Source of the DNA: an uncultured Piscirickettsiaceae bacterium
GTDB taxonomy: Bacteria > Pseudomonadota > Gammaproteobacteria > GCF-002020875
Length of the DNA stretch: 64,000 bases
Reading direction: 5' to 3'
Assembly: GCA_964344435.1 (NCBI GenBank)
Contig: CAYFNH010000001.1
Location: forward strand, 5,303-69,302
Notes under the pieces: model-generated
Seen by the model: the letters and a program-made list of their open reading frames with translations, nothing else
Told to the model about the DNA's origin: nothing
Databases searched by the model: none
In this document: one piece after another, positions 17,952-40,179 of the stretch
Layout of the letters: each line of letters begins with the position of its first letter
Numbering within the stretch: the first letter of the stretch is position 1
Program-made: the position numbers and the translations under genes

Positions 17952-18992
17952 TTACAGACCAGACTGCGACAGCATGTACTCTATCGCCGCCTTCAGCTCT
18001 GCATCCTTCAGAGAGGAGCCACCACGTGGCGCCATCGCGGTACCGGCTACCCCGGCAATCGCACTCTTGACCAACCCATCTACGCTGCCCGCCTTCTGCA
18101 GACGTGGCTCCCAGTTCTCCTTGACGCCGGACTGGGGAGCATTGAGGGCTGGAGCCGCAGGGCCATGACAGGCAAAACAGGCTCCCTGGAACAGGGTGGC
18201 ACCATCGGCCGCACCACCTGTTGCTGCTGGTGCAGCTGCTACCTCGGCAGGCTTCTCTTGTGCTGCCGGAGCCGGGGCTGCCGCCTCTTCTGCAGCAGCA
18301 ACGGGAGCCGCAGGGGCAGTGGCTACCTTGGCTGCTGGCGCCCCCATCGAACCCAGATAGGCGGTAATCGCAGCGATATCGGCATCACTCAGCACCGAAG
18401 CAACATCACGCATCATCTTGTTGGGATCATTCTCCCGGGTACCCTCACGGAATGCATGCAACTGAGCGACGGTATAGCCCTCCAGCTGACCGCTCAGGGC
18501 CGGCCACCGGGCCAGATCATTACCCGCAGCATCCGGACCATGACAGGCCATACAGGCACTGATGCCACGCGCCATATCACCGCCCTGATAGAGCGCCTTG
18601 CCCTGGGCAACCAACGCTGCATCTCCGGCGGATCCCGCCTTGCCGGCAACGGTTGCATAGTAGGCACCGAGGTTGGCCATATCGGCATCACTCAACCCCA
18701 TGGCCTGACCGGTCATCAGTGCATCCTTGCGTGCGCCTGACTTGAAGTCCTGCAGCTGCTTGACCATATAGCCACCATTCTGTCCTGCCAGAGAAGGAAC
18801 CGCCTTGGTCTTTCCCGGATTCATCGGATCCGGAAACGCAGGATTGCCTTCACCATTCATACCGTGGCACGCACCACAGACAGCGGCCTTGGCCTTACCT
18901 GCATTCACATCACCCGCAGCTGCTGCCGCACCAGAGACGGCCAGCGCAACCGCTGCAACCAGAGTGTTTGTCCAATCGACCTTCTTCATCAA
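17952..18992 (-). CDS. triheme c-type cytochrome: diheme cytochrome c4 fused to a C-terminal cytochrome c5-like domain
   Basis: A signal peptide and three CXXCH motifs (CGACHG, CMACHG, CFACHG). The first two domains resemble cytochrome c4. An Ala/Pro-rich linker is followed by a class I monoheme domain. Confidence 0.85.
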   Translation of the reverse strand: MMKKVDWTNTLVAAVALAVSGAAAAAGDVNAGKAKAAVCGACHGMNGEGNPAFPDPMNPGKTKAVPSLAGQNGGYMVKQLQDFKSGARKDALMTGQAMGLSDADMANLGAYYATVAGKAGSAGDAALVAQGKALYQGGDMARGISACMACHGPDAAGNDLARWPALSGQLEGYTVAQLHAFREGTRENDPNKMMRDVASVLSDADIAAITAYLGSMGAPAAKVATAPAAPVAAAEEAAAPAPAAQEKPAEVAAAPAATGGAADGATLFQGACFACHGPAAPALNAPQSGVKENWEPRLQKAGSVDGLVKSAIAGVAGTAMAPRGGSSLKDAELKAAIEYMLSQSGL

Positions 18993-19127
18993 TCTGTTCC
19001 TTATTTCCTATTTGAGTGGCTTCAACCCCACGGCATGCGTGCAGACAAGTATCCGCACAAGTAATAGAAGATTGGCAATTATATTCGTAATTGCTGCAAC
19101 TGCAAGTTGTGGCTCAGCCAGCGCCCC

Positions 19128-19133
19128 CTATAA
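19128..19133 (+). promoter_or_regulatory. candidate -10 box (TATAAT) for engB, unusually close to the start codon
   Basis: TATAAT lies 7 nt upstream of the engB ATG at 19141. Confidence 0.25.
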
Positions 19134-19140
19134 TGGGCGC

Positions 19141-19737
19141 ATGAACCTCAATCAGGCTACCTTTACCACCAGTGCCCCAAAGCTCTCACGCTGTCCCGGG
19201 GAGAGCATTGCCGAGGTCGCCTTTGCGGGCCGCTCCAATGCCGGAAAGTCGAGTGCACTCAACCGCCTAACCGGCATCAAAGGACTCGCCCGTACCAGCA
19301 AGACCCCCGGGCGTACCCAACTGATCAACTACTTTGCACTCGACGAGCGGCACTACCTGGTTGATCTTCCCGGATATGGTTTTGCCAAGGTACCCACTCG
19401 GGTTCGACAGGAGTGGGAGAAAAATCTGGGGGACTATCTGCAACGCAGAGAGGCCCTCAAGGGGCTGATCATCCTGATGGATATCCGTCATCCGATGACC
19501 GAAAACGACCGTCAGATGGTGGCCTGGAGCCACCACATCGAGCTACCGATTCACATTCTGCTAACCAAGGCGGACAAGCTGAAACGGGGGGCGGCGATGG
19601 CAGCCCTGCACAAGGTGGAGAAGATCGTGCGGGAGGAGTTCCCCGGAATCACCGTGCAGATTTTCTCTTCCACCAAGGGGATCGGTCTGGAGCAGGCTCG
19701 CCGGCAGGTAATTGGCTGGCTATATGCAACCTACTGA
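19141..19737 (+). CDS. engB: ribosome biogenesis GTP-binding protein YihA/EngB
   Basis: MNLNQATFTTSAPKLSRCPGESIAEVAFAGRSNAGKSSALN (G1), DLPGYG, TKADK. The ORF-track start at 18805 is an upstream in-frame extension. Confidence 0.88.
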   Translation: MNLNQATFTTSAPKLSRCPGESIAEVAFAGRSNAGKSSALNRLTGIKGLARTSKTPGRTQLINYFALDERHYLVDLPGYGFAKVPTRVRQEWEKNLGDYLQRREALKGLIILMDIRHPMTENDRQMVAWSHHIELPIHILLTKADKLKRGAAMAALHKVEKIVREEFPGITVQIFSSTKGIGLEQARRQVIGWLYATY

Positions 19738-19750
19738 AGCATAAAAAGAA

Positions 19751-19790
19751 AAACCCCGTTCAGGCAAGGGAGGAGTTCCTGAACGGGGTG
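19751..19790 (-). terminator. rho-independent terminator of polA
   Basis: Stem AACCCCGTTCAGG, 13-nt loop, stem CCTGAACGGGGT. On the minus strand the hairpin is followed by TTTTTCTTTTTAT. Confidence 0.7.
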
Positions 19791-19860
19791 GCTGTATCAA
19801 TTACAACAGTACAGTTACCCGTTAAGACACCTTGAACGGGGAAAAGTTCACTGATTTTTT

Positions 19861-22563
19861 CTAATGGGCATCATTCCAGTTGCTGCCACTGCCCACATCG
19901 ACAATCAGCGGCACGTCCAGTAGCGCTGCCGTCTCCATCTCTCCTTTCACCAGTGCAATCAACGGCTCCAGATCCTCTTCCGCCACCTCAAACACCAACT
20001 CATCGTGCACCTGCATGATCATCATGGCATCAAGACCACTGGCCACCAGCTCCCGATCCACCGCAATCATCGCCCGTTTGATGATATCGGCAGCGGTACC
20101 CTGCATCGGGGCATTGATGGCGGTGCGTTCGGCATATTGACGGCGCTGACCATTGCGTGAGTTGATCTCCGGCAGATAGAGTCGTCGACCAAACAGGGTC
20201 TCGACGTAGCCCTGCTGGCGTGCCAGCGCCTGGGTCTGCTCCATGTACTGCTTCACCCCGGGATAGCGCTCAAAATAGAGATCCACATAACTCTGCGCCA
20301 CGTTGCGGGTGGTGTTGAGCTGTTTCGCCAGCCCAAAGGCGGACATGCCGTAAATCAGCCCGAAATTGATCGCCTTGGCGCTGCGGCGCTGCTCGGTGGT
20401 CACCTCGGCGGGCTCCAGCGCAAACACCTCCGCTGCAGTGGCGCGATGAACATCTTCCCCGCTGTGAAACGCCGCCAGCAGCCCACTATCCCCCGAAAGG
20501 TGGGCCATGATACGCAGCTCGATCTGTGAGTAGTCTGCCGCCATCAGCAACTTGCCCGGATCGGCGATAAAGGCCTGACGGATACGTCGTCCCTCCTCAC
20601 TGCGGATCGGGATATTCTGCAGATTGGGGTCGGAGGAGGAGAGCCGCCCGGTAACTGCCACCGCCTGATGGTAGGAGGTGTGGATGCGCCCACTGCGTGG
20701 ATTGATCTCCAGCGGCAGCTTGTCGGTATAGGTGGACTTGAGCTTGCTCATGCTGCGGTGCTGGAGAATCAATTCCGGCAGACGATAGTCCTGTGCCAGC
20801 TCCTGCAGCACCGGCTCCGCAGTTGATGGCTGCCCCTTGGGGGTCTTCTTCAGCACCGGCAATTCGAGTTTGCCGTAGAGCATCTCCTGAATCTGTTTGG
20901 GTGAGGAGAGATTGAACGGATCACCCGCCTCGGCAAAGGCCTCCTTTTCGATCGCCTCCATCTTGACCGCCAGCTCCTGACTCTGCTGCTGCAGCATCGC
21001 CACATCGACCTTTACCCCATTGCGCTCGATTCGTCCCAACACCTCCAGCAGTGGCATCTCCACATCACGAAACAGCTGTTCACGCTCCGACTCCTCCAGC
21101 AGACGGGGCCACAGGGTTTGGTGCAGCCTCAGCGTCACCTCGGCATCTTCGGCGGCATAGGGGGCCGCCTGTGCGATCGGTACCTGATCAAAGCGCAGCT
21201 GTTTCTTGCCCTTGCCTGCCACCTCCTCGTAGCGGATGTTCTTGTGGCCGAGATACTTCAGGGCCAGCGAGTCCATATCGTGGTGGGTGGCACTGCTGTC
21301 GATCACATAGGATTCCAGCATGGTGTCATAGGCAATGCCCTGCAGGGTGATGCCGTGGTTGGCAAAGATGGTGGCGTCATACTTGATGTTCTGCCCCACC
21401 TTCTTCGGGGTGGAATCCTCCAGCAGTGGGCGCAGATGCTCCAGTGCCGCCTCCCGGTTGAGCTGTGGTGCTGCCTCCAGGTCAGTATGGGCCAGCGGCA
21501 GATAGGCCGCCTTGCCGGCATGAACCGCAAACGAGACCCCCACCAGCTCCGCCTCCATCGCCCGCAGGCTGGTGGTCTCGGTATCAATCGCATATTGATC
21601 CGCTGCAGCCATCGCATCGATCCACTCATCAAGTTGATCCTGGGTAAAAATGGTCTCTACCTCGAGTGCCTGCAACGCATCGGCGGCACTCTCCTCCGAC
21701 TCGGAGGCCTCCCCCAACAGCTCGGAGAGCCAACGCTTGAACTCCATCTGCTGGTAGAGCTGCTGCAATCTTTGCCAGTCTGGCTCGGTGGGCTGCAACC
21801 CGCCAACCTTCTGCTCCAACTCGACATCACAGCGGATGGTGACCAGCTCCTGTGACAGCGGCAGCTGTTCCAGGGTGTTGCGCAAATGCTCCCCCACCTT
21901 GCCCCCCACCTCATCGGCACGGGCGATAACCTGCTCCAGAGAGCCGAATTTCTGCAGCCACTTCACCGCGGTCTTCGGCCCCACCTTGGGGACACCGGGG
22001 ACATTGTCCGAGGTATCTCCCACCAGCGCCAGATAGTCGATGATCTGCTCCGGCTTGACCCCAAACTTCTCCACCACCCCCTCCGGTCCCATCACCGTGT
22101 TGTTCATGGTGTTGATCAACGTCACCTGCTGGTTGACCAGCTGTGCCATATCCTTGTCGCCGGTAGAGATCAATACCGGAATCCCCGCCGCAGTCGCCTG
22201 TGTCGCCAAGGTACCGATCACATCATCCGCCTCCACCCCCTCGTGGACGATCATCGGAATCCCCATCGCCTCGATGATCTCATGCAGGGGGGCAATCTGG
22301 CTGCGCAGATCCTCCGGCATCGGCGGGCGGTTGGCCTTGTACTGCGGATAGAGGTCGTTGCGGAAGGTCTTGCCCTTGGCATCAAAGACCATCGCCACCT
22401 GCTCAGGGGCATACTCCTCCAGCAGGCTTTTCAACATATTAACCACCCCGTAGGTCGCTCCGGTGGGTTGCCCACGGGAGTTGGTCAGAGGTGGCATCGC
22501 ATGGAAGGCACGGAACAGATAAGAGGAGCCATCCACCAGGATCAATTGCGGTTTCAGTGTCAT
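19861..22563 (-). CDS. polA: DNA polymerase I
   Basis: The 900-aa product has a 5'-3' exonuclease N-terminus (MTLKPQLILVDGSSYLFRAFHAMPPL), a 3'-5' exonuclease and a polymerase domain. Confidence 0.95.
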   Translation of the reverse strand: MTLKPQLILVDGSSYLFRAFHAMPPLTNSRGQPTGATYGVVNMLKSLLEEYAPEQVAMVFDAKGKTFRNDLYPQYKANRPPMPEDLRSQIAPLHEIIEAMGIPMIVHEGVEADDVIGTLATQATAAGIPVLISTGDKDMAQLVNQQVTLINTMNNTVMGPEGVVEKFGVKPEQIIDYLALVGDTSDNVPGVPKVGPKTAVKWLQKFGSLEQVIARADEVGGKVGEHLRNTLEQLPLSQELVTIRCDVELEQKVGGLQPTEPDWQRLQQLYQQMEFKRWLSELLGEASESEESAADALQALEVETIFTQDQLDEWIDAMAAADQYAIDTETTSLRAMEAELVGVSFAVHAGKAAYLPLAHTDLEAAPQLNREAALEHLRPLLEDSTPKKVGQNIKYDATIFANHGITLQGIAYDTMLESYVIDSSATHHDMDSLALKYLGHKNIRYEEVAGKGKKQLRFDQVPIAQAAPYAAEDAEVTLRLHQTLWPRLLEESEREQLFRDVEMPLLEVLGRIERNGVKVDVAMLQQQSQELAVKMEAIEKEAFAEAGDPFNLSSPKQIQEMLYGKLELPVLKKTPKGQPSTAEPVLQELAQDYRLPELILQHRSMSKLKSTYTDKLPLEINPRSGRIHTSYHQAVAVTGRLSSSDPNLQNIPIRSEEGRRIRQAFIADPGKLLMAADYSQIELRIMAHLSGDSGLLAAFHSGEDVHRATAAEVFALEPAEVTTEQRRSAKAINFGLIYGMSAFGLAKQLNTTRNVAQSYVDLYFERYPGVKQYMEQTQALARQQGYVETLFGRRLYLPEINSRNGQRRQYAERTAINAPMQGTAADIIKRAMIAVDRELVASGLDAMMIMQVHDELVFEVAEEDLEPLIALVKGEMETAALLDVPLIVDVGSGSNWNDAH

Positions 22564-22949: not shown

Positions 22950-23885
22950 ATGTCTGTCTACACCACAATCACCGAGGCGGAGCTGACCACCTTCCTCGGC
23001 CACTATGCTGTTGGTGAGCTGGAGTCCTTCAAGGGCATCCTTGCCGGGATCGAGAACACCAACTACTTCGTCACCACCAGCGAGGGGGAGTTTGTACTCA
23101 CTATCTTCGAACAGCTGGTGTGGGAGGAGCTCCCCTACTTTCTCGACATCATGGCCTTTCTGGCGGAGCATGAGGTGCCCAGTGCCCACCCCATTGCCGA
23201 CCGCGAGGGTGACTACCTGCGTCAACTCAAGGAGAAGCCCGCCGCACTGGTGGAGCGCCTCAGTGGCAGCAGCGTGGAGACCCCGAGCACAACCCAGTGC
23301 GCCGAGATCGGACAGGCACTGGGGCGAATGCACTCAATGGCCCACAATTTTGATGGCAAACGGGACAATCCCCGCGGGATCGGCTGGTGCCGGGACTCCA
23401 TCACTCAACTCTCAAACCATTTACAGGATGAAGAGCGTAGCTTGCTGCAGCAGGAGCAGGCCTTCCAGGCGACCTCTGCACGAACCACCCTCCCCCAGGG
23501 GGTAATCCATGCCGACCTGTTTCGGGATAATGCACTCTTCGTGGAAGATCACCTCACCGGCATCATCGACTTCTATTACGCCTGCAATGATGCACTGCTC
23601 TACGATGTGGCGGTCACCGTGAATGACTGGTGCAGTGATGAGAAAGGGGCCATCGACCTGCCCCGTTACCAGGCGCTGCTGCAGCACTACCGCTCGCAAC
23701 GCCGCTTTGATCCGGCTGAAACGGAGGCCTGGCCCGCGATGCTGCGGGCTGCCGCCCTCCGTTTCTGGCTTTCACGCCTGCTTGACCTCCACTTCCCGCG
23801 CCCCGGAGAGATCACCCAGACCAAAGACCCGAATGTATTCAGAGATATCCTGCTCTGGCATCGGGCCCACCCTCTCTCACTCTGA
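22950..23885 (+). CDS. thrB: homoserine kinase, APH-type (Pseudomonas-type ThrB)
   Basis: MSVYTTITEAELTTFLGHYAVGELESFKGILAGIENTNYFVTTSEGEFVLTIFEQ matches P. aeruginosa ThrB (MSVFTPLER...GIAEGSENSNFFV...GEFVLTL). It sits next to polA, as in Pseudomonas. Confidence 0.85.
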   Translation: MSVYTTITEAELTTFLGHYAVGELESFKGILAGIENTNYFVTTSEGEFVLTIFEQLVWEELPYFLDIMAFLAEHEVPSAHPIADREGDYLRQLKEKPAALVERLSGSSVETPSTTQCAEIGQALGRMHSMAHNFDGKRDNPRGIGWCRDSITQLSNHLQDEERSLLQQEQAFQATSARTTLPQGVIHADLFRDNALFVEDHLTGIIDFYYACNDALLYDVAVTVNDWCSDEKGAIDLPRYQALLQHYRSQRRFDPAETEAWPAMLRAAALRFWLSRLLDLHFPRPGEITQTKDPNVFRDILLWHRAHPLSL

Positions 23886-24160
23886 TGCGCATCTATATGC
23901 AGACCCCACCCCAGGAGGGGCACCCCCTGCGCTTTTTCCAGATTCAGATTCAGGAGGATCTGATCGATGGTTGGACCCTGGTCCGGGAGTCCGGTACCCA
24001 GGGAAGCCGCAGCAGCACCCTGAAGAAGATCCACTACGAGTGCCGCGAAGATGCCGAGGAGGCCCTGTTTGCACTGCGTGACCAACAGCTCCGCAAAGGG
24101 TTCAAAACCACCTTTGCCACCGGTATGGCACAGGGCTACCCCGGTGAGTTCTCTCCCTGA
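23885..24160 (+). CDS. small WGR-domain protein
   Basis: The 91-aa product reads ...FFQIQIQEDLIDGWTLVRESGTQGSR...LFALRDQQLRKGFK, resembling a WGR domain. It overlaps the thrB stop. Confidence 0.5.
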   Translation: MRIYMQTPPQEGHPLRFFQIQIQEDLIDGWTLVRESGTQGSRSSTLKKIHYECREDAEEALFALRDQQLRKGFKTTFATGMAQGYPGEFSP

Positions 24161-24240
24161 TTGAGCCACATCAATTGACACTCAAGTATTCGCAAGAATA
24201 CAATAGGGCCTCTTCGAAAGTTCGGGTCGGGATCTGAGAT

Positions 24241-25371
24241 ATGAAAAAAACAGTTGTAAATCGTGTAATTGCATCCATTCTATTGCTCTCTGCCAGCGCC
24301 ATGGCTGGTGCCAATGAGCAGGCCAGCGGCGAATTCGTGGTGGCACAGAGTAGCCGGGTAGGGGCCACCGTCTCCCTTGGGGGCAGCGTGATTCCCCACC
24401 TTGAGGTCAATCTGGTTGCCAAGATGCCGGGGGATATTCTCTTCCTCGCCGGTGAAGAGGGCGATCAGTTCAAGAAGGGTGACCGGCTTGCCAGCCAGGA
24501 CATTGATGCGATGATGGCCAAGCGCGCGCAGGCGGAGGCACAACTCGCCAGTGCCGATGCCGGTATCCGCAACGCACAGATGCAACTGCGTAACGAAATT
24601 GAAAACCCCAACGCGCAGCCCAACGCAATGATGGGAGGGGTACCCAGCATGATGACCATGTTCTCCAATCCGATGCGTAATATGAGTGGCCGAGGAGACT
24701 CCAGCACCCAACGCCAGACCAACCTCTACGGTATGAATGTGCAGGTGGAGACCGCCACCAACGCCTACAACCAGGCGGTAGCGGCCATTCGTGAACTCGA
24801 CGAGAACATTGAACAGGCTACTATCATCGCACCCTTTGATGGGGTGATCCTGCGCAAGATGGTTGAGGTGGGGCAGCCTGCACAACCCGGTGTTCCCCTC
24901 TTTCTGTTTGGTGATACCAGCCAGTTGCAGATCCGTGCCGAGGTGCCGGCACGCCTGGTACGTGGCCTCCACAAGGGGATGCAGCTCAGTGCTCGCCTCG
25001 ACCACAATGACCAGATCACCCCGATTACCGTAGAGCGCATTTTTCCAATGGCCGACATGATGGGGCACACCGTAACCGTGAAATTTGACCTCCCGGCAGA
25101 CACCCCGGCTGCACCCGGCATGTATACCGAGGTGATCATTCCCGATGCCGGTGCCGACTACAATGAACTGGTAACCATCCCCCGCACAGCCATCGTCTGG
25201 CGCGGCAGTCTGCCCGCCCTGTTTGTACAGCGGGAGGATGGCACTCTGGAGATGCGTCTGGTTCGTGTCGGTGATACCGCTGACAACGGCTGGGCAAGCG
25301 TCCTTTCCGGGCTGCAATCCGGAGAGCGGGTACTGGCGCATCCGACCTCAACCACCACCTCTACCCGATAA
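24241..25371 (+). CDS. RND efflux periplasmic adaptor (membrane fusion protein) with a Met-rich insertion
   Basis: A signal or lipobox-like N-terminus with an HlyD/AcrA-like biotinyl-lipoyl and beta-barrel layout. The insertion NAMMGGVPSMMTMFSNPMRNMSG is Met-rich. Confidence 0.8.
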   Translation: MKKTVVNRVIASILLLSASAMAGANEQASGEFVVAQSSRVGATVSLGGSVIPHLEVNLVAKMPGDILFLAGEEGDQFKKGDRLASQDIDAMMAKRAQAEAQLASADAGIRNAQMQLRNEIENPNAQPNAMMGGVPSMMTMFSNPMRNMSGRGDSSTQRQTNLYGMNVQVETATNAYNQAVAAIRELDENIEQATIIAPFDGVILRKMVEVGQPAQPGVPLFLFGDTSQLQIRAEVPARLVRGLHKGMQLSARLDHNDQITPITVERIFPMADMMGHTVTVKFDLPADTPAAPGMYTEVIIPDAGADYNELVTIPRTAIVWRGSLPALFVQREDGTLEMRLVRVGDTADNGWASVLSGLQSGERVLAHPTSTTTSTR

Positions 25372-25449
25372 CCCCATCCCCTGCCGCCTCTCCATGAAAG
25401 GCGGCAGTTTGGTTCCCATGCTCCAACCCTCCAAGAACAAGAACCGTTT

Positions 25450-28400
25450 ATGACTGACGAGAACAAGACCGGCGACGCAGAGGAGCGTCCAACAGACTCC
25501 AACCACTCCGCAGATTCCCCCCATTTTCAGGATATTCCGGAACAGGTACTGCAACGAGCCAGCCACGAAGAGGTGGAGCTCGGGTTTGCAGGGCGACTGG
25601 CCGACTCCTTTATCCACTCCCCGCTCTCCCCACTGCTCTTTATTGCGATGATGGCCGTCGGTATCTGGGGGTTGATTGCCACCCCCCGTCAGGAAGATCC
25701 ACAGATCTCGGTACCGATGATCGACATCTTCTTCCCCGCCCCCGGTCTCTCCTCCGGTGAGGTGGCCAACCAGGTGATCGACCCGTTTGAGCGGGTATTG
25801 AGCGAAATCCCCGGTCTGGAACACATCTACTCCGCCAGTGACCGCGAGTACGGCATCATTACCCTGCAATTCGAGGTGGGGGAACCGATGGGCCCCTCCA
25901 TCGTTCAGGCCCACAGCAAGATCCAGTCCAACCTCGATCTGTTACCAAAGGGGATCAAGCCCCCCCAGGTGAAGCCGAAAGAGGTGGATGACGTCCCCTC
26001 GGTCACCCTCACCCTCTGGTCTGACGAAGTGGATGACGAATATCTGCGCACCCTGGGTGTCAGCGTACTGCAACACCTGAAGCAGTTGCCACAGACCGGT
26101 GTGGGCTTTGTCACCGGTGGACGCAGCCGCCAGGTTCGGGTCGAGATTCTGCCGGAGCGTCTGGCTGGTTTCGAGGTGAGCCCAGGACAGATCGTACACG
26201 CCATCCAGACCGCCAATACCGGCCATACGGTTGGCACCGTGGAGCTGAACGACCACTTCTTCTTTGTGGAATCAGGCGGCTTCCTCTCCGAGGTTTCCGA
26301 GATTGAGCAGTTGGTGGTTGGTCAACACCGTGGTGCCCCGGTCTATCTGCGTGATGTTGCCCATGTGGTGGAAGGGCCGCAGGAGACCAAACAGCTGGTC
26401 ACCTTCTCTACCGGGCCCGCCTATACCGGCGAGGCATCGACCAAGAATGCGGCGGCCGTCACCATCGCCCTCGCCAAACAGCGTGGTGCCAATGGGGTCA
26501 CCGTAGTAAACAACATCCTCGATGAGGTGGAGAACAACCTCAAGGGGTATCTGATCCCCGACAATGTCCATGTCGAGGTGACCCGCAACTACGGGGAAAG
26601 CGCCAACACCAAGGTCAACGACCTGCTCTTCAAGCTGTTTGTAGCAACCGGCGCGGTTACCTTTCTGGTCTGGCTCAGCCTCGGCATCAAGCCCTCCATC
26701 GTGGTACTGCTGACCATTCCGGTAGTACTGGTCGGTACCGTCTTCGTCTCCATGCTGATGGGCTACACCATCGACCGCGTGAGCCTGTTTGCCCTGATCT
26801 TCTCCATCGGCTTCCTGGTCGATAACGCCATTGTGATCGTCGAGAATATCTATCGCCGCTGGCTGATGGCAGGGTCGATGGATACCCGCACGGCCGTGGA
26901 TGCAGTACGTGAGGTGGGCAATCCCACCGTACTCGCCACCTATACGGTGATTGCGGCACTGGTGCCGATGGGTTTTGTCTCCGGCATGATGGGCCCCTAT
27001 ATGGAGCCGATTCCGGCGCTCGGTTCGGTAGCGATGCTGCTGTCGCTGTTTGCCGCCCTGATCTTTGCCCCCTGGCTGGCGATGCGCATCGTTCCCAGCA
27101 TGGAGAAACTGCATGCCATGGAGGCCCGTGACGAGAAGATCGATGCCAAGCTCGATGTCTTCTTCCGCAAGATCATCACCACCCTGGTGGAGCAGCCTCT
27201 CAAGGGGTGGAGTTTCCTGTTTGGCCTGATTCTCAGCTTCTTTGCCGCGATGTACCTCTTCTACAACACCGCGGTGCCTGTGAAGATGTTGCCATTCGAT
27301 AACAAGGCCAACTTCAGTGTGGTAATCGATATGCCCGATGGCACTGCACTCCCCACCACCGCCAACTTCACCCGTCGCGTGGCCGAAGAGTTTGCCGACG
27401 TGGAGGAGATTGTCGCTACTCAGCACTATATTGGTGCGGCACAACCCTTCGATTTCAACGGCCTGGTACGCCACTACTACCTACGCCAGTTCGCCTGGCA
27501 GGCAGAAATTGCGGTGCAGCTGACCGACAAGACCACCCGCAAGCGTACCAGCCACCAGATTGCCAGTGAGGTCCGTGCCCGACTGCAACCCATCGCCGAG
27601 GCCGAAGGGGTTGCCATCACCGTGGTGGAGATGCCTCCCGGCCCACCGGTGCTGCAGACCGTAGTGGCAGAGATCCATGGTCCGGATGCCGAGACCCGAC
27701 GTCAGGTGGCCGATGATCTGACCCAGATCTTCCGCGAATCCGGCATCATCTCCGATGTCGACAACCTGATGCGCAGCCCGATGGAGACCTGGCGCTTTGT
27801 GATCAATCGCGAAAAGGCCTCACGTCAGGGAATTTCAGTCGAGACCATCAACCAACACCTGGCCATGGTGATGGGCGAGTTCGAGGCCGCGACCATCTTC
27901 CAGTCACTGATTCTGGAGCCCACCTACATCGTGATGACCATTCCGGTCGAAAAGCGCTCCCACCTCCACCGCCTCGGTGATCTGCCGGTAATGACGATGG
28001 ATCAACGCACCATCCCACTCTCGGAGCTGGGCGAGTTCGTCAAGGTACAGCGTGACCCGATCATCTTCCACAAAGATCTACGCTCGGTTGAGTTTGTGGT
28101 TGGTGACGCCGTGGGCCGCCTGGGTGCACCGATCTACGCCATGCTGGATGTTGAGCGCATTCTGGAGGAGAAGGGCTATGTCACCCCGGATGGGGTCACC
28201 CTGCGTAGCGGTGAGTACACCGGCGCACCGGAGAACGACAAACAGAGCAGCTTCGAGTGGGGCGGAGAGTGGACCGTCACCTACGAGACCTTCCGTGACA
28301 TGGGGATCGCCTTCGGGGTTGCCCTGGTCGGTATCTACATGCTGGTGGTGTGGGCCTTCGGTAATTTCGTGATCCCCGCGATTATCATGTCCCCGATCCC

Positions 28401-28806
28401 GCTGACCCTGCTCGGTATCGTACCGGGACACTGGCTGCTGGGTGCGGAATTTACCGCCACCTCGATGATCGGCTGGATCGCCCTGGCCGGTATCATTGTG
28501 CGTAATTCGATTCTGATGGTGGACTTCACCATGCACTCGTTCCGCACCGGAACTCCATTGCTGGAGGCGGTAATCCTCTCGGCCAAGTCGAGAACCCGTC
28601 CGATCCTGATTACCGCACTGGCGCTGGTACTCGGCTCTGCGGTGATACTGCTGGATCCGATCTTTCAGGGGATGGCGGTTTCACTCCTGTTTGGTGTCTT
28701 CCTCTCCACCCTGCTGACGCTGGTGGTAATCCCGCTTGGCTGTATCAGCGCCGGAGAGAAGGTATTCATGGAGGCACAGGATCTGGAAAAGAATATCGAT
28801 AGCTGA
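25450..28806 (+). CDS. RND family efflux transporter permease (AcrB/CzcA superfamily)
   Basis: The 1118-aa product has 12 TM segments with two large periplasmic loops and a ~60-aa hydrophilic N-terminal extension. The adaptor gene lies immediately upstream. Confidence 0.88.
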   Translation: MTDENKTGDAEERPTDSNHSADSPHFQDIPEQVLQRASHEEVELGFAGRLADSFIHSPLSPLLFIAMMAVGIWGLIATPRQEDPQISVPMIDIFFPAPGLSSGEVANQVIDPFERVLSEIPGLEHIYSASDREYGIITLQFEVGEPMGPSIVQAHSKIQSNLDLLPKGIKPPQVKPKEVDDVPSVTLTLWSDEVDDEYLRTLGVSVLQHLKQLPQTGVGFVTGGRSRQVRVEILPERLAGFEVSPGQIVHAIQTANTGHTVGTVELNDHFFFVESGGFLSEVSEIEQLVVGQHRGAPVYLRDVAHVVEGPQETKQLVTFSTGPAYTGEASTKNAAAVTIALAKQRGANGVTVVNNILDEVENNLKGYLIPDNVHVEVTRNYGESANTKVNDLLFKLFVATGAVTFLVWLSLGIKPSIVVLLTIPVVLVGTVFVSMLMGYTIDRVSLFALIFSIGFLVDNAIVIVENIYRRWLMAGSMDTRTAVDAVREVGNPTVLATYTVIAALVPMGFVSGMMGPYMEPIPALGSVAMLLSLFAALIFAPWLAMRIVPSMEKLHAMEARDEKIDAKLDVFFRKIITTLVEQPLKGWSFLFGLILSFFAAMYLFYNTAVPVKMLPFDNKANFSVVIDMPDGTALPTTANFTRRVAEEFADVEEIVATQHYIGAAQPFDFNGLVRHYYLRQFAWQAEIAVQLTDKTTRKRTSHQIASEVRARLQPIAEAEGVAITVVEMPPGPPVLQTVVAEIHGPDAETRRQVADDLTQIFRESGIISDVDNLMRSPMETWRFVINREKASRQGISVETINQHLAMVMGEFEAATIFQSLILEPTYIVMTIPVEKRSHLHRLGDLPVMTMDQRTIPLSELGEFVKVQRDPIIFHKDLRSVEFVVGDAVGRLGAPIYAMLDVERILEEKGYVTPDGVTLRSGEYTGAPENDKQSSFEWGGEWTVTYETFRDMGIAFGVALVGIYMLVVWAFGNFVIPAIIMSPIPLTLLGIVPGHWLLGAEFTATSMIGWIALAGIIVRNSILMVDFTMHSFRTGTPLLEAVILSAKSRTRPILITALALVLGSAVILLDPIFQGMAVSLLFGVFLSTLLTLVVIPLGCISAGEKVFMEAQDLEKNIDS

Positions 28807-28881
28807 ACAAATCCCCCCTCCACGAGCCTGGAGGGGGGAATCTGAACCCCATCGGGTTCGAGTTGTCGTACACTATCCCCC

Positions 28882-30174
28882 ATGAACGAATCGAAAGCGC
28901 TTCAACCCCTGATCCTGGTGGTGGATGACAACCCCATCAACCTGCGTGTGGTCGGTGGGGAGCTGAAAAACAGCGGCAAGTACCGCATCACCTTTGCCAA
29001 CAGCGGTGCTGCAGCCCTGCAGCAGATCGAGAAACAGAAGCCCGACCTGATTCTACTCGACATCATGATGCCGGAGATGAGTGGCCATGAAGTCTGTACC
29101 CGGCTCAAGGAGAACCATGAGACCCAACACATCCCGGTGATCTTTCTCACCGCGATGGGCGATACCGATGATATCGTCAAGGGGTTCGAGCTTGGTGGCT
29201 CCGACTACATCACCAAGCCCTTCACCCCGACCGTGCTGCTGGCCCGGGTGGATACCCACCTGCAACTCTACCTCTCGCGCAAGCGGGAACAGGAGCTGCT
29301 CTCCAAGGAGCGCATCTACGCCTACCAGAACGGGATGACGCAGATGCGCACCGAGATTCTCCATAATCTGGGCAATGCGATGAGTGGTTTCAGCTCTCGC
29401 ATCATGGAGAAGCAGAAGATGTCACACAGCATTACCGAGATCGGGCATGCGCTGGCTACTACAGTACAGATTCTGGACAACAGCCAGGAGCGGCAGCGGG
29501 TCGAGCAGGTGCTCACCAAGGCTTCGGAGATGCTGACCCAAACCCTGCCGCAGATCATCGACAAGGATGAGCAGAGCCTGAGCGGGATGCACGACTATGT
29601 TCGCACCATTCTCTTCACCCTGAAAAACCTGACCCAGGAGGGGTTCCACTCCACCACCGTGGAGCTGGGCTCTCTATTCGACGATGTCACCACGCTGCTG
29701 CAGAGTGAACTGGATCGGCTGCAGATCCAGTTCCACATCGAGGGGACTCCACCCTACCCTTCCCTGTTTCTCCCCCGAGGTCCGTTCAGCCATGCCATTT
29801 TTGACATCATCAAGAATAGCTGCGAGGCGATTGAGGAGGAGATGAAACAGGGTAAGCTCGCTGCGGGAGAGGGGCAGATCACCGCAACCATACAGCGCGT
29901 CGAGCAACCCCTTCGCTCACAGGGGGAGGCCCACTACACCATTGAGATGGGTGACAATGGTGTCGGAATTCTGCAGGAGAACCTATCCGAGCTGGCCAAG
30001 AAGCAGTTTTCCACCAAACATCAGGGAGTGGGCCTGGGGCTGCACAGTGCCAGTAATTTCATCAACTCCATCCATGGCACCATCGCGTTCAACAGTCCGG
30101 GGCTGCACCAGGGAGCAAGCGTCCGTATCGCTCTGCCAATCGAGCCTGAAGCTCCCACTAACCACCCAGAGTAA
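28882..30174 (+). CDS. response-regulator receiver fused to a histidine-kinase-like (HATPase_c) domain
   Basis: The REC domain has LILVVDDNPINLRV...DLILLDIMMPEMSG...KP. A possible HisKA_2/HWE-like H-box is EILHNLGNAMSG. The G-boxes are DNGVGI and GVGLGL. Confidence 0.75.
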   Translation: MNESKALQPLILVVDDNPINLRVVGGELKNSGKYRITFANSGAAALQQIEKQKPDLILLDIMMPEMSGHEVCTRLKENHETQHIPVIFLTAMGDTDDIVKGFELGGSDYITKPFTPTVLLARVDTHLQLYLSRKREQELLSKERIYAYQNGMTQMRTEILHNLGNAMSGFSSRIMEKQKMSHSITEIGHALATTVQILDNSQERQRVEQVLTKASEMLTQTLPQIIDKDEQSLSGMHDYVRTILFTLKNLTQEGFHSTTVELGSLFDDVTTLLQSELDRLQIQFHIEGTPPYPSLFLPRGPFSHAIFDIIKNSCEAIEEEMKQGKLAAGEGQITATIQRVEQPLRSQGEAHYTIEMGDNGVGILQENLSELAKKQFSTKHQGVGLGLHSASNFINSIHGTIAFNSPGLHQGASVRIALPIEPEAPTNHPE

Positions 30175-33100
30175 CCAGCTGCTCCAGCTTCTCTGCGGCC
30201 TGTTCAAACTGCATCCCGAACACCGCCTCGGTCACTGCCTCGAACTGTGCTCTGACCTCATCCCCCTGCGTTGCCAGCAACTGCTCCAGCAGATCCTCTG
30301 CGGCAAAGTCATGGTTGTGGAGGGCCTCCATCAATTGGTGATAGAGCGCCTGCTCCGCCGCATCCTCAAGACACAAAGCGCCTTCAGCTGCCGCTGTTTG
30401 TGGAGCGGCTGCGACAACCCCCAGCTCCTCGGCCACTTTTCGAGTCTGCTGCTGTAGGCGCCCACAGGCTGCCTCCACCTGATCAAACAGCGTCTCCTCA
30501 ACCTCATCCTCCCCCTTGAGCTGTTCGGAGAGGTCTTCAGACAGGGCAAAGAGCTCCTCTGCAGCCAGATTACCGCTGGCCCCCTTGAGGTTGTGAATCA
30601 GTGACTGCGCCTGATCACGCTCCCCCTGCTGATAACACTGCTTTGCCTCCTGCACGTCGGTAACCGACTGTTGATTGAGGCGATCGAGTAGCTGAAACAG
30701 CCCTTTCCGGTCTTGCTGCATGCGCGCCAGCGCCTTCTCCAGATTCAGAATCGCCAATGGCTGCTCTGCATCAGTCTGCTTCTGACCGTCTTCTGCTCCA
30801 CCACTGGCGGGTACTACCGGCCTGGCATCTTCCTGCGACAAACCACACCAACGGGCCACCGTGGTGAAAAGCTTCTCGGTATCGATCGGCTTGGCGAGAT
30901 GATCATCCATCCCGGCCTGCAGACAGACCTCACGATCCTCATTGCGTGCATTGGCGGTCATTGCGATCACCGGTACACTGCTCCACTCTGCATTCTCTCG
31001 AATCTTCTGCGTTGCCTGCACCCCGTCCATCACCGGCATCTGCATATCCATCAACACGGCATCGATATTGGTGCCATAACGCTCCATCCACTCCAGCGCC
31101 TCGCCACCATGGTTGGCCAGCATCACCATCGCACCAGCCCCCTCCAGCATCTTGCAGGCTACCTCCTGGTTGATCTCATTATCCTCCACCAGCAGCAGTT
31201 TGAGCCCGTCCAGCCGTATTTCGGAACCAAGCACATCCCGGTGGCCGCTACCCTCGGATGGCTGAATAAAGCGGATCAGGGTATCGAACAGGTTCGATGG
31301 GGTGATCGGTTTGGTCAACAGGGCATCAACAAAGTTGGCCTCTGCCTTGTGCTCGGTCAACAACTGCTGGCCATAGGCGGTCTCCATGATAATCACCGGT
31401 GGGTGCTGATTGCCCTGCTTGATCTGCATCGATGCCGCCAACCCATCGATACCCGGCAGGCGCCAATCCATCAGGATGAAGTCAAACGGCTCGCCCACCT
31501 CGTCCATCTTCAGCGCCAGACTCACTGCACGCTCACCATCATAGGCCAGCATGGTCTGGCAACCAAAGCTGGAGAGAATGTGGTCAAGCACCCGTACCGC
31601 CTCCTGACTATCATCCACAATCAGTATCCGCAGCTTCTCGAACGAGGCGCTGTCATAGGCACGATAGTCGATCTCCCGGTCGCTCAATGCAAACGGCAAC
31701 TCGACAATAAACTCGGTGCCCTCTCCCAACTGACTCTCCACCCGCAGGGTACCGCTCATCAGCTGAATGAGCTGCTGCACGATGGTCAACCCCAGCCCGG
31801 TTCCCCCATAGCGGCGGGTGATCGAGTTGTCCGCCTGCTCAAAGGGTTGGAAAACCTTGTCCACCGCCTCCTCACTCATCCCCACACCGGTATCCTTCAC
31901 CCGAAAGATCAACTGTGGCGCCTGCTCCGTCCCCGGCACCAGCCGCACACTGAGGGTAATCAGCCCGCGATCGGTAAACTTGATCGCATTGCTCATCAGG
32001 TTGGAGAGGATCTGGTTGAGACGCAGGCTATCCCCCACCAGATTCACCGGCACATTGTCACTGCGTTCGACCAGTAGTTCGATATCCTTGTCCTTGGCCA
32101 TTACCGAGCTGACATTGACCAGATTATCGATCACCGCCTCCAGCTGAAATGGTACCTGCTCTATCCCCAGCTTCCCTGCCTGAATCTTGGAGTAGTCGAG
32201 AATGTCATTGATGATCCCGAGCAGCGAGTTGGCTGCGGCATCGATCTTCTTGAGCTGAATCCGGTGTCTGGAGGCGAGCTCATCCTCCTGCAACAGCAGA
32301 TAGACCAGACCGGTAATCGCATTCATCGGGGTACGAATCTCGTGGCTCATATTGGCCAGAAACTCATCCTTCGCCTTGCTCGCCTGTATCAACTCATGGG
32401 TGCGGATCGCCACCTCCTTTTCCAGCGCCTGATTACGCTCGATCAAGATACGGTTGATCTGCTCATTGAACAGTGAGGCAACCAGACCAAGACCAATAAT
32501 CAGTAGTGCGATCAAGGTGATCTCTACACCGATATCGAGATTGTGCAGTTCAACATTGAACAGTCCGGTGGAGACACCGCAAACACCGCCGCTGTAGAAC
32601 TCGGCTGCCGCCATCCCGGTGTAGTGCATTCCGGCTACAGCAACCCCCATCACCATCGCCACCAGCAGGCGGGGGATAAAGGCACGTCTCACCTTGATCA
32701 TCGGCACATAGTAGAGCAGCAGCAGTGCCACCAGAGAGACGCTCACCGCAATCACCACCGACAAGATCCACAGACCCGGGGTGTAACGCAGCATCGCTGG
32801 TGCCAACAGGGCCGCCATTCCGGTGTAGTGCATGGTGGCAACACCAGCTCCCATCAACAACGCCCCGGCAACTACCCGTCCCCAGCGCAGCTCCTTGAAG
32901 CGGATCTGGCGCAGCGCCAATGCCGAAACCGAGACAGCGGCCACGAAGGAGAACAGGGTCATCCCCAAGTCATAATGGATCTCTACAGGAATAGAGAAGG
33001 CGAGCATGGCCACAAAGTGCATCACGAAGATGCCTCCCCCCAGGGTCACCGAGGCCCCCATCCACCAGTAGCGGGCAGAGTCGCGCTGCTGCTGGTAACC

Positions 33101-33262
33101 ATTGCGCATGTGGGTGATTAGGCTCAGGGTGGTGTAGGCGGCAAATACCGCAACCAGATAGGAGAGCAACACCAGCAGCGGATCATAACTGGCCTGCAGC
33201 AGTTCACCACCAACCCGCTCCAGCAGAAAATATCCCTGCATCAACTCATGGAAAGCCGTCAT
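30158..33262 (-). CDS. MHYT-domain hybrid sensor histidine kinase (MHYT 7TM, HisKA, HATPase, REC, REC, HPt)
   Basis: The N-terminal membrane domain carries three motifs: MHFVAML, MHYTGMAALL and MHYTGMAAAEF. H-box FLANMSHEIRTPMNAITG; G-boxes DTGVGM and GGTGLGL. Two receivers (FILMDWRLPGIDG; VLMDMQMPVMDG) and a C-terminal HPt (HNLKGASGNLAA). Confidence 0.88.
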   Translation of the reverse strand: MTAFHELMQGYFLLERVGGELLQASYDPLLVLLSYLVAVFAAYTTLSLITHMRNGYQQQRDSARYWWMGASVTLGGGIFVMHFVAMLAFSIPVEIHYDLGMTLFSFVAAVSVSALALRQIRFKELRWGRVVAGALLMGAGVATMHYTGMAALLAPAMLRYTPGLWILSVVIAVSVSLVALLLLYYVPMIKVRRAFIPRLLVAMVMGVAVAGMHYTGMAAAEFYSGGVCGVSTGLFNVELHNLDIGVEITLIALLIIGLGLVASLFNEQINRILIERNQALEKEVAIRTHELIQASKAKDEFLANMSHEIRTPMNAITGLVYLLLQEDELASRHRIQLKKIDAAANSLLGIINDILDYSKIQAGKLGIEQVPFQLEAVIDNLVNVSSVMAKDKDIELLVERSDNVPVNLVGDSLRLNQILSNLMSNAIKFTDRGLITLSVRLVPGTEQAPQLIFRVKDTGVGMSEEAVDKVFQPFEQADNSITRRYGGTGLGLTIVQQLIQLMSGTLRVESQLGEGTEFIVELPFALSDREIDYRAYDSASFEKLRILIVDDSQEAVRVLDHILSSFGCQTMLAYDGERAVSLALKMDEVGEPFDFILMDWRLPGIDGLAASMQIKQGNQHPPVIIMETAYGQQLLTEHKAEANFVDALLTKPITPSNLFDTLIRFIQPSEGSGHRDVLGSEIRLDGLKLLLVEDNEINQEVACKMLEGAGAMVMLANHGGEALEWMERYGTNIDAVLMDMQMPVMDGVQATQKIRENAEWSSVPVIAMTANARNEDREVCLQAGMDDHLAKPIDTEKLFTTVARWCGLSQEDARPVVPASGGAEDGQKQTDAEQPLAILNLEKALARMQQDRKGLFQLLDRLNQQSVTDVQEAKQCYQQGERDQAQSLIHNLKGASGNLAAEELFALSEDLSEQLKGEDEVEETLFDQVEAACGRLQQQTRKVAEELGVVAAAPQTAAAEGALCLEDAAEQALYHQLMEALHNHDFAAEDLLEQLLATQGDEVRAQFEAVTEAVFGMQFEQAAEKLEQLVTLGG

Positions 33263-33446
33263 GATCCATTTACCCCAGCGTATGATTTATAAAATGAGTG
33301 CCATTATGCACAATAACCCTCTACGCTTCATGCCCAATGTTCTCCATGATACTGAGCATGATTGCCCCCAAAAGGGCCCTGACATATACTATGCGGCCCT
33401 TTTTTGAACGGATGAACAGCTCCCTTCACGGAATAGTCAACGAATC

Positions 33447-39398: not shown

Positions 39399-40179
39399 AT
39401 GGATATCGCCTCACTGATTGGTGTCATCTCCGGGCTGGGAATGGTGTTCGGGGCGATTGTCTACGAAGGCAATCTCGACCAGTTCGTCAGTGGACCGGGT
39501 CTGATGATTGTATTTGGCGGTACCATCTCCGCAACCCTGCTCAACTTCCAGCTCAAGGATGTGATTATCGGCATGCGCGCTGTTCACCGGGTATTCACCT
39601 CCAGTCGGGAAAATCCCAATGATGTGCTGTCGCAGATGCTGATTCTGAGCCGTACCGCCCAGGTCAAGGGACCAACCGCACTGGAGAAGCTGATCCAGAA
39701 AGAGGACTCCTGGTTTCAGCGCAAGGCGATTGAGCTCACTGCTGACAACTCGGATGAGTCGGTGATCCGCTCTGCACTACGTTCCGAAATCAGTTCGGTA
39801 AAGCTGCGCAACATGATCACCGAGGATATCTTTCGCAAGATGGCCACCTATGCCCCCCGCCTTCGGCATGATTGGAACCCTGATCGGTCTGATCCAGATG
39901 CTGGCCGCAATGGATGACCCCTCCCAGGTGGGGCCGGCGATGGCAACCGCCCTGACCACCACCTTTTATGGCTCACTGCTCTCCACGGTACTGTTCAACC
40001 CGATTGCCGGGAAGCTGCGCGCCAAGACCATTGAGTCGATCACCAACCTCGAGATCATCTACCTCACTGCGGTCAGCATCAAGCACGGAGAGCACCCGAT
40101 CGCCCTCTACGAACAGGCAGTGGCACTGATCCCATTGGGCCAGCGCCGCCCCTTCGAGATGCCCGAGGTGGGTGCGTAG
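39399..40179 (+). pseudogene. MotA/PomA-family stator protein, split by a +1 frameshift in a C6 homopolymer
   Basis: ORF 39399..39917 (MDIASLIGVISGLGMVFGAIV...KMATYAP) and ORF 39850..40179 (PAFGMIGTLIGLIQMLAAMDDPSQVGPAMATALTTTFYG...) are the N- and C-halves of one MotA/PomA-like protein. Removing one C from CCCCCC at 39853-39858 restores ...ATYAPAFGMIGTLIG.... Confidence 0.65.

Follow-up and report, generated by a model that had tools for sequence, protein, structure and literature searches.

Four consecutive genes in a 64-kb window (the whole stretch of 64,000 nucleotides (nt) analysed here) from an uncultured Piscirickettsiaceae bacterium encode a periplasmic RND adaptor, or membrane-fusion protein (24241–25371, + strand, 376 amino acids (aa), with a signal peptide and without a lipobox cysteine), an RND permease (25450–28806, + strand, 1118 aa), a receiver-controlled histidine kinase of Rec-alphaS-DHp-CA layout (hereafter REC-kinase; 28882–30174, + strand, 430 aa) and an MHYT hybrid sensor kinase (30158–33262, − strand, 1034 aa), the last two being convergent genes whose 3′ ends overlap by 17 nt (30158–30174). 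The question that this locus raises is whether the four genes work as one copper- or redox-linked unit, as the original prediction supposed, or whether they only stand side by side. Adjacency and a Met-rich stretch in the adaptor had hinted at a copper module; comparative genomics splits the region in two, and it probably consists of two separate two-gene modules which are neighbours only in this genome. The four open reading frames (ORFs), the overlap and the peptides quoted in that prediction are all present as described and nearly all of its domain calls hold as well; the many homologs of all four proteins show that the genes are real and that the ORFs have not arisen by chance.

Genomic loci of REC-kinase homologs and of adaptor homologs were fetched separately and compared. 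Where the adaptor is 81% identical (locus L012), the order polA, APH-type kinase gene, small ORF, adaptor, RND, gltB and gltD is kept, and the spacer between RND and gltB, only 620 bp long (11227–11848), holds just a 44-aa ORF and yields no kinase remnant by blastn or tblastn. At L098/L099 (adaptor 86%, RND 91% identical) the polA-APH-adaptor-RND-gltBD synteny is likewise retained without the signalling pair, the slot between RND and gltB being taken by the gene of a 115-aa hemerythrin (L098, 14640–14987). Locus L099 and the REC-kinase locus L001 belong to one 67,153-bp scaffold, on which the pump and the kinase pair lie about 20 kb apart. At the more distant L013 and L014 the adaptor-RND pair occurs by itself amid unrelated genes, and in all contexts compared it is a bare pair with no adjoining regulator or outer-membrane factor gene. 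Counted from either side, the pump adjoins the kinases in one of about seven REC-kinase lineages and the kinases adjoin the pump in one of five pump contexts, and none of the 37 loci recovered in a metagenome scan with kinase-specific motifs has an adaptor or RND match within 6 kb. With the adjacency lost in relatives whose adaptors are 81–86% identical, the kinase pair some 20 kb off in one of them and the pump missing from all 37 loci, the grouping of the four genes into a single unit is not supported.

Sequence divergence points the same way. Between the window and the organism of L001/L099, PolA, GltB, RND and adaptor are 86–91% identical, while the two kinases reach only 50% and 61% (28882–33262 compared with L001 10001–14360), so that the kinase pair of the window is not simply a relocated ortholog; the figures suggest that the signalling genes were acquired separately or have diverged very fast. 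The RND-gltB spacer, which in the window spans 28807–33374, is variable among close relatives, where it holds two kinases, a hemerythrin gene or a 44-aa ORF. A search of the boundaries of the 4.6-kb kinase segment found no meaningful terminal direct or inverted repeats, the one notable repeat lying inside the MHYT gene, and no mobile-element genes.

That the region is after all one copper/redox unit, in which the MHYT kinase, as sensor of copper or redox state, acts by way of the REC-kinase on an RND exporter of Cu(I)/Ag(I), is highly improbable in the light of these comparisons. The genes do follow one another directly, RND and REC-kinase being separated by 76 nt in which no clear terminator or promoter is seen, the adaptor does have a Met-rich segment, and an MHYT domain has been found to depend on copper (PMC11347149). 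Yet adjacency is not kept even with pumps that are 81–91% identical, the signalling pair occurs without the pump in L001 and L010, no pump lies near the 37 further loci, and no DNA-binding output protein is present by which the pump could be regulated. The copper of CoxC, moreover, is a cofactor of gas sensing and not the signal, and the RND protein has neither the CusA/CzcA signatures nor, in its adaptor, the Met site of CusB, as detailed below.

The transcription signals of the region bear on the same question. A sigma-70-like promoter candidate precedes the adaptor gene (24175–24204, + strand; TTGACA-18-TACAAT, 11 of 12 matches by consensus scan, 37 nt before the start codon); the scan is a pattern match only, and the number of sigma-70-like sites that it returns for the region is that expected from shuffled sequences. 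Directly after the permease stop codon lies a GC-rich hairpin with an 11-bp stem (28812–28839), followed by a second small one, and for the 86-nt region that contains them the folding energy is −33.8 kcal/mol (z = −2.75). No T-run follows the first hairpin on the + strand and no sigma-70-like site occurs in the 76-nt gap, as far as a scan for the sigma-70 consensus goes, so that read-through from the pump into the REC-kinase is possible. This tells against a full separation of the two modules: in this genome the REC-kinase is possibly co-transcribed with the pump, which would be a lineage-specific trait. Going further, one might see here a recent regulatory capture, in which, in this lineage only, transcription of an inserted kinase pair has been coupled to that of the pump, with no shared ancestral function; the short gap, the apparent lack of a promoter and a hairpin without T-tract would suit such a case, as would kinases that are 50–61% identical to those of the nearest relative next to flanking genes at 86–91%, which suggests separate acquisition. 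Nevertheless, a stable GC-rich hairpin of 11 bp sits immediately behind the RND stop codon, and the promoter scan covered only the sigma-70 consensus. We consider such a capture, in which the REC-kinase would be read through from the pump promoter and the levels of pump and relay would co-vary, quite unlikely.

Two modules that are probably independent have to be judged each on its own residues, which for the pump begins with the permease. It matches Pfam ACR_tran with 441 bits and carries the N-terminal extension that had been predicted, of about 45 residues, acidic, of low complexity and of variable length among orthologs. No curated NCBIfam subfamily cut-off is passed: the multidrug-type model NF033617 scores highest (409.6 bits, cut-off 1250), and NF000282 (283.7 bits, cut-off 1250), TIGR00915 (242.8 bits, cut-off 940) and the CusA/CzcA model TIGR00914 of HME RND proteins (195.8 bits, cut-off 701.45) come below it, so that multidrug-type models rank first with about twice the score of CusA/CzcA. 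The best sequence matches in the PDB are MdtB (200 bits), TriC (191) and MexK (160), with ZneA at 119 and CusA absent from the top 60.

Residues were mapped in an alignment with three orthologs and Escherichia coli CusA, MdtB, MdtC and AcrB. The check for a CusA-like periplasmic Met triad (M573, M623 and M672 of CusA) came out negative, V625, Q684 and V721 standing at the aligned positions and V, Q and V/A in four orthologs, in an alignment which at about 22% identity is approximate. In transmembrane helix (TM) 4 the permease reads S452...D458-N459...E465, where AcrB D407-D408 and CusA D405-A406 align to D458-N459; R1018 in TM10 aligns to AcrB K940 and CusA E939, I1052 aligns to CusA K984, and AcrB R971 and T978 of TM11 are retained as R1048 and T1055. 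CzcA has the TM4 motif D-x5-D-x6-E. No Asp occurs six residues before D458 in the permease, and the CusA relay of A399/D405/E412 with E939/K984 finds no match either. Compared with a relay of the AcrB type, D458, R1048 and T1055 are retained, whereas N459 replaces the second Asp and R1018 replaces Lys. The Asp-Asn pair (26821–26826) and the Arg (28501–28503) recur in all five family members examined and, as predicted from these residues, make up a proton relay that is atypical for HAE1 pumps.

Because the Met triad and the CusA/CzcA relay are missing and the models favour multidrug types, the permease is not an HME pump; judged from sequence, it is a deep-branching lineage nearest the HAE1 (multidrug-type) models. 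Two points weigh on the other side of this placement, namely that the permease is 20–23% identical to each reference pump, which goes with an approximate mapping of periplasmic residues, and that the class rests on hidden Markov model scores, PDB ranking and signature residues of the E. coli reference pumps.

The adaptor leads to a similar picture. It matches HlyD_3 and HlyD_D23 in Pfam, and with 148 bits against TIGR01730 RND_mfp (cut-off 94.9) it belongs to the RND periplasmic adaptors, while its 108 bits against TIGR00999 (cut-off 319) leave it outside the CusB/CzcB-type metal adaptors. The best PDB matches by sequence are TriA/B and MexJ. The AlphaFold2 model, with a predicted local distance difference test (pLDDT) value of 79, has the four-domain adaptor fold of TMexC, AcrA, ZneB, MexA and MacA (E 1e-20 to 1e-16), a Foldseek result which fails to split metal from drug adaptors, ZneB standing level with AcrA/MexA and CusB somewhat lower. 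In BLASTP with CusB only residues 194–366 align (24% identity, E 0.005), and the N-terminal Met site of the CusB type (M49/M64/M66, YDPM...SPFMDMDL) has no counterpart in the adaptor, whose mature N-terminus enters the first beta-strand directly. The copper pump that had been proposed is thus not supported, in view of the missing Met triad, a relay unlike those of CusA and CzcA, 196 bits for TIGR00914 against 410 for the multidrug model, the missing CusB site and the lack of any cop or cus gene among the scanned ORFs of the window, a scan which took in every ORF of at least 400 aa and left a few shorter ones outside.

The Met-rich segment itself deserves a closer description, as its original reading was that of an insertion in the helical region of the adaptor. 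The segment is there (NAMMGGVPSMMTMFSNPMRNMSG, residues 128–150) and lies within a Gly/Pro/Met-rich loop of 30 residues (123–152, PNAQPNAMMGGVPSMMTMFSNPMRNMSGRG; 24607–24696, + strand). In the AlphaFold2 model helices 89–121 and 154–192 surround it, residues 127–148 being a low-confidence loop, and it therefore caps the alpha-helical hairpin of the adaptor as its tip. An alignment of 28 adaptor orthologs, down to 46% identity, shows the segment at fixed length, with P123, Q126, G133, P135, F141, P144, R146 and G150 invariant; it is on this account a family signature and not a lineage-specific low-complexity insertion, so that absence of the Met-rich segment from orthologs, which would have spoken for such an insertion, was not observed, even though the Met residues vary. 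The orthologs stem from Thiotrichales, Ca. Thioglobus, Chromatiales and sulfur-oxidising symbionts. In AcrA-type adaptors the hairpin-tip end faces the outer-membrane channel. Most likely, the tip loop is a flexible hydrophobic contact surface, rich in Met, Phe and Leu and in Gly and Pro, and the substrate exported by the adaptor-permease pair is most likely organic or amphiphilic and not a metal cation.

What speaks against this interpretation is the loop composition: it is Met-rich in most orthologs, and positions 130, 137 and 140 are Met in about 80–93% of them. A role of the loop as a ligand of soft metals or sulfur species, read from such composition, would be a possibility of low probability. 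It leads to the alternative that the adaptor-RND pair alone, independently of the kinases, is a new type of exporter for Cu(I)/Ag(I) or reduced sulfur with the loop as its ligand, for which one can cite the conservation of the loop in 28 orthologs with mostly Met at 130, 137 and 140, the presence of MxM and MxxM spacings, the concentration of the family in sulfur-oxidising Gammaproteobacteria and symbionts, and an RND protein that fits no curated subfamily. However, the number of Met in segment 123–152 ranges from 0 to 7 and no Met of the loop is invariant: those at 130, 137 and 140 are swapped for Ile, Leu, Val or Thr in some orthologs, and one ortholog (P0164, NTILGGAPSLFGVFSDPARSLLG) has none at all. 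Exchange of loop Met with Leu, Phe, Ile or Val suggests a hydrophobic role instead. Nor does the permease offer an aligned Met triad or an acidic metal site, no metal-related genes are linked to the adaptor-RND pair in any of the five contexts, and the loop lies at the membrane-distal end of the adaptor, far from the point where CusB hands metal over to CusA. This alternative carries little probability.

MdtABC of E. coli and TriABC-OpmH and MexJK of Pseudomonas aeruginosa are multidrug-type RND pumps that rely on an outer-membrane factor encoded at a remote site. Their operons, like the pair described here, have no outer-membrane factor gene, and they include the nearest PDB relatives of permease and adaptor; that no such gene lies nearby, as had been noted before, holds for the scanned ORFs of the window. 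By analogy with these systems we infer that the pump may use an outer-membrane channel encoded elsewhere. On the other hand, identity is about 22%, TM4 has D-N here in place of D-D and TM10 has Arg in place of Lys, and the adaptor differs by its conserved 30-residue hairpin-tip loop. With CusCFBA of E. coli the pair shares an RND permease, a periplasmic adaptor with Met-rich sequence and a single TM4 Asp (D458, at D405 of CusA), but V625, Q684 and V721 stand in place of the Met triad, Arg and Ile are found where CusA has E939 and K984, and neither the M49/M64/M66 site of CusB nor CusF, CusC or CusRS is found, the latter among the scanned ORFs. The pump lineage is conserved and uncharacterised, and its members come from marine Gammaproteobacteria, both uncultured and sulfur-oxidising, and from symbionts.

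The second module is the convergent kinase pair. The REC-kinase had been described as a receiver fused to a HisKA_2-like/HATPase domain, of which the Response_reg (105 bits) and HATPase_c (41.6 bits) parts are borne out by Pfam. It has the receiver Asp D60, a putative phospho-acceptor H161 (codon 29362–29364) within an LHNxGN box, the segment EILHNLGNAMSG containing this His, and the ATP-binding motifs N312, D358-N-G-x-G and G-L-G-L-H-S-A. Across nine orthologs of 40–52% identity, which make up a small family, D15, D16, D60, K112, H161-N162-x-G164-N165, N312, D358-N-G-x-G and G-L-H-S-A are invariant. The AlphaFold2 model (pLDDT 75) consists of the receiver, a continuous helix 116–197 that bears H161, a paired helix 201–253 and an alpha/beta CA domain, and its top six PDB matches by Foldseek are chains of LvrB (8vc9, E 2e-21 to 1e-19), with ZraS, HK853 and other kinase cores behind them. 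The protein unites the receiver, the continuous helix, the conserved His and the CA domain of a Rec-controlled histidine kinase with LvrB-like architecture.

Three points stand against taking it for an active kinase of this kind. No Pfam HisKA model matches the protein, which is the part of the earlier domain call that did not hold up; a phmmer search of the PDB with residues 135–430 (E up to 1) lists 13 kinases among which LvrB does not appear; and kinase activity at H161 is putative, being derived from residue conservation and a model of pLDDT 75. As there is no sequence similarity in the DHp-CA part, the link to LvrB is structural only, one of architecture and not of orthology. It could accordingly be argued that the REC-HATPase protein is inactive as a kinase and serves the hybrid kinase as a phosphate sink, a phosphatase-type modulator or a pseudo-kinase scaffold, and besides the missing HisKA match the atypical LHNxGN H-box and the lack of a cognate regulator gene nearby in any context fit this idea. 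We regard it as rather unlikely, given that H161, N312, D358-x-G-x-G and G-L-G are invariant at 40–52% identity, which is unexpected for a degenerate kinase, and that the model reproduces the fold of LvrB, an active kinase, whose target LvrC is likewise encoded outside the Lvr genes and was found by phosphotransfer profiling. An LHNxGN-type H-box followed by a CA domain is also seen behind many other N-termini (L106–L138, 440–1157 aa), where the receiver probe is weak or unmatched, and is therefore the mark of a wider subfamily of kinases with poor annotation, whose member in the window goes unseen by Pfam HisKA. A contig scan with the full REC-kinase alignment, whose patterns came from the receiver domain, returned only generic receiver proteins of at most 33% full-length identity, mostly cyanobacterial REC-HisKA-HATPase proteins, and no orthologs.

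The company that the REC-kinase keeps supports a role as a partner of other kinases: it adjoins a histidine kinase in seven lineages and an MHYT kinase in three. At L001 (50% identity) it is convergent with, and 7 nt apart from, the gene of a 1029-aa MHYT-HisKA-HATPase-REC-REC-Hpt kinase, and radical-SAM, Memo and AMMECR1 genes but no pump lie upstream; at L010/L011 (52%) it follows parC and overlaps by 11 nt with a convergent ORF, and the protein encoded there shares 48% identity with the HPt end of the window's MHYT kinase. At L002–L005 (41–42%) a HAMP histidine kinase and two periplasmic binding proteins are encoded ahead of it, at L009 it has receiver and PAS kinases clustered beside it, and at L102–L104 it adjoins a 927-aa hybrid kinase; the receiver-bearing loci of the 37-locus scan (L102–L104, L113 and L115/L116) again adjoin hybrid kinases. 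A cognate regulator gene near the REC-kinase was found in none of the contexts compared. The recurrence of the tail-to-tail pair at L001 and L010/L011, together with a Rec-DHp-CA model whose top match is LvrB, upholds the suggestion of the REC-kinase as a plausible partner for the MHYT kinase, and both synteny and structure lend the partnership of the two kinases good support. It is to be set against this that MHYT hybrid kinases at 37–40% identity (L100, L101) have no REC-kinase neighbour, and the pairing is therefore limited to a closer clade. The latter two loci, L100 (4386–11092) and L101 (4379–11911), one from Pseudorhodoferax and the other from a JGI metagenome contig, have a neighbourhood in common, with a CobQ/CbiA-type amidotransferase upstream and an alpha/beta hydrolase and DUF3182 downstream.

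The MHYT kinase has the composition that had been predicted for it. The HMMER search that had been proposed for MHYT and HPt detects both, MHYT (PF03707) in four stretches with 133.7 bits (cut-off 21) and Hpt with 25.9 bits, just above its cut-off of 24.6, and HisKA, HATPase_c and two Response_reg domains all exceed their Pfam cut-offs, which confirms the two receivers and the HPt. On the − strand, as placed by Pfam, follow the MHYT membrane sensor (32477–33205), HisKA with H307 (32174–32374), HATPase (31688–32035), REC1 with D599 (31277–31633), REC2 with D739 (30857–31195) and HPt with H890 (30449–30691). The three MHYT motifs announced earlier are indeed three repeats, though only two are literally MHYT (MHYT144 and MHYT212), the first being MHFV81. 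Among 14 orthologs, down to 31% identity, M81-H82, M144-H145-Y146 and M212-H213-Y214 of the sensor are invariant, and so are H307, the N, G1 and G2 boxes (N421/N425, D457-x-G-x-G, G487-G491), D599 and K651 of REC1, D739, T769 and K791 of REC2 and H890. The kinase thereby has the His, N/G boxes, Asp residues and HPt His of a hybrid histidine kinase with HPt, and with its relay residues invariant the relay seems to be intact. Kinases of this architecture are widespread; Pseudorhodoferax, Roseateles, Magnetococcales and Nitrospina are among the groups that have them.

Some further observations concern this gene and its counterpart. A 54-nt direct repeat within it (32607–32660 and 32811–32864, 81% identical, 204 nt apart) matches MHYT repeats 2 and 3, so that the DNA still bears the trace of a duplication within the sensor. 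At L001 a stand-alone 133-aa receiver gene (14470–14871) lies divergent beside the MHYT kinase, of which no homolog was found in the window, where only the receivers of the two kinases matched, and a PAS hybrid kinase with HPt as well as napDBA genes are located within 7 kb of it (17978–21263).

For the kinase pair these features suggest a multi-step relay, whose direction we infer. The membrane MHYT domain would sense a diatomic gas or redox signal and control autophosphorylation at H307; the phosphoryl group would pass to a receiver Asp (D739 and/or D599), from there to H890 of the HPt and from H890 to D60 of the adjoining Rec-DHp-CA protein. Phosphorylation of D60 would then turn on the autokinase of the REC-kinase at H161, as in Leptospira LvrB, and the REC-kinase may in turn phosphorylate a regulator encoded elsewhere.

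A close parallel to such a cascade is the LvrA/LvrB(/LvrC) system of pathogenic Leptospira (PMC13269768, PMC5863495), in which a hybrid kinase gene also lies beside a Rec-DHp-CA gene. LvrB is both response regulator and histidine kinase and is activated by the hybrid kinase LvrA; phosphorylation of its receiver frees the catalytic domains, and it phosphorylates the distant partner LvrC (PMC13269768), which is not encoded among the Lvr genes and was identified by phosphotransfer profiling (PMC13269768). The downstream regulator is thus encoded elsewhere, as proposed here, and the MHYT kinase gives a sub-threshold match to the NCBIfam model of LvrA (175 bits). The differences are that the 430-aa protein shows no similarity to LvrB in DHp-CA sequence, sharing its architecture without being its ortholog, that the upstream kinase here has an MHYT membrane sensor, two receivers and an HPt, that the genes are convergent whereas the Lvr genes are co-directional, and that the host is a marine gammaproteobacterium.

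The sensor has its parallels elsewhere. MucR and NbdA of P. aeruginosa are MHYT-domain sensors. With these and with CoxC the kinase shares an N-terminal membrane domain with three MH(Y/F)(T/V) repeats, the Met, His and Tyr of which are invariant here, but its output is a hybrid histidine kinase and not a LytTR DNA-binding domain or GGDEF-EAL. The MHYT domain of CoxC from Afipia carboxidovorans senses CO and requires copper (PMC11347149), which takes the literature further than the prediction cited earlier for the domain. As the MHYT proteins studied before CoxC all had GGDEF-EAL outputs (PMC11347149, 2024), no work on a histidine kinase with an MHYT sensor was available by then (PMC11347149).

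The surroundings of the four genes are housekeeping in character, with polA and an APH-type kinase gene upstream and gltB and gltD downstream, as are the remaining scanned genes of the window, and a scan of the window with Rfam at gathering thresholds gave no match. By sequence the window matches a metagenome contig of ENA/NCBI (PRJEB17505), and the nearest named relatives carry the annotation of Gammaproteobacteria MAGs. Between the APH-type kinase and adaptor genes lies a small ORF (23885–24160) of an 86–91-aa class without Pfam match; ORFs in the same place are called in L012 (6280–6540) and L098 (9642–9902), a correspondence known by position and not by sequence comparison, and in L098 an additional DUF302 gene precedes it. 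Farther away, a motA-like gene (39399–40179) is split into two overlapping frames, the first (39399–39917, 172 aa) with a MotA_N domain and the second (39850–40179, 109 aa) beginning with the conserved segment PAFGMIGTLIGL, and motB follows intact (40192–40998). The split looks like a frameshift, which could mean a pseudogene or an assembly error, and the gene is called as split in L006 as well, where this sequence was assembled independently. A Hemerythrin-NIT-GGDEF protein (10052–12250), a candidate diguanylate cyclase linked to nitrate/nitrite or to O2/NO, is encoded tail-to-tail with a 912-aa hybrid kinase (12259–14997), the first approximately 540 residues of which match no Pfam family.

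Returning to the two modules, conserved gene order singles out one particular Rec-DHp-CA protein as candidate partner of an MHYT histidine kinase. Two further propositions, one that the convergent pair is the first MHYT histidine kinase with an assignable downstream partner, the other that the adaptor loop represents a new mode of contact with the outer-membrane channel or the outer membrane, or else a site for soft metals or reduced sulfur species, are unlikely. If the first were true, uncultured marine Gammaproteobacteria would possess a cascade for O2, NO or CO that runs from an MHYT sensor through an HPt to a Rec-controlled kinase; if the second were true, the loop would replace the canonical hairpin tip in a pump lineage which is specific to sulfur oxidisers and has an unusual Asp-Asn/Arg relay.

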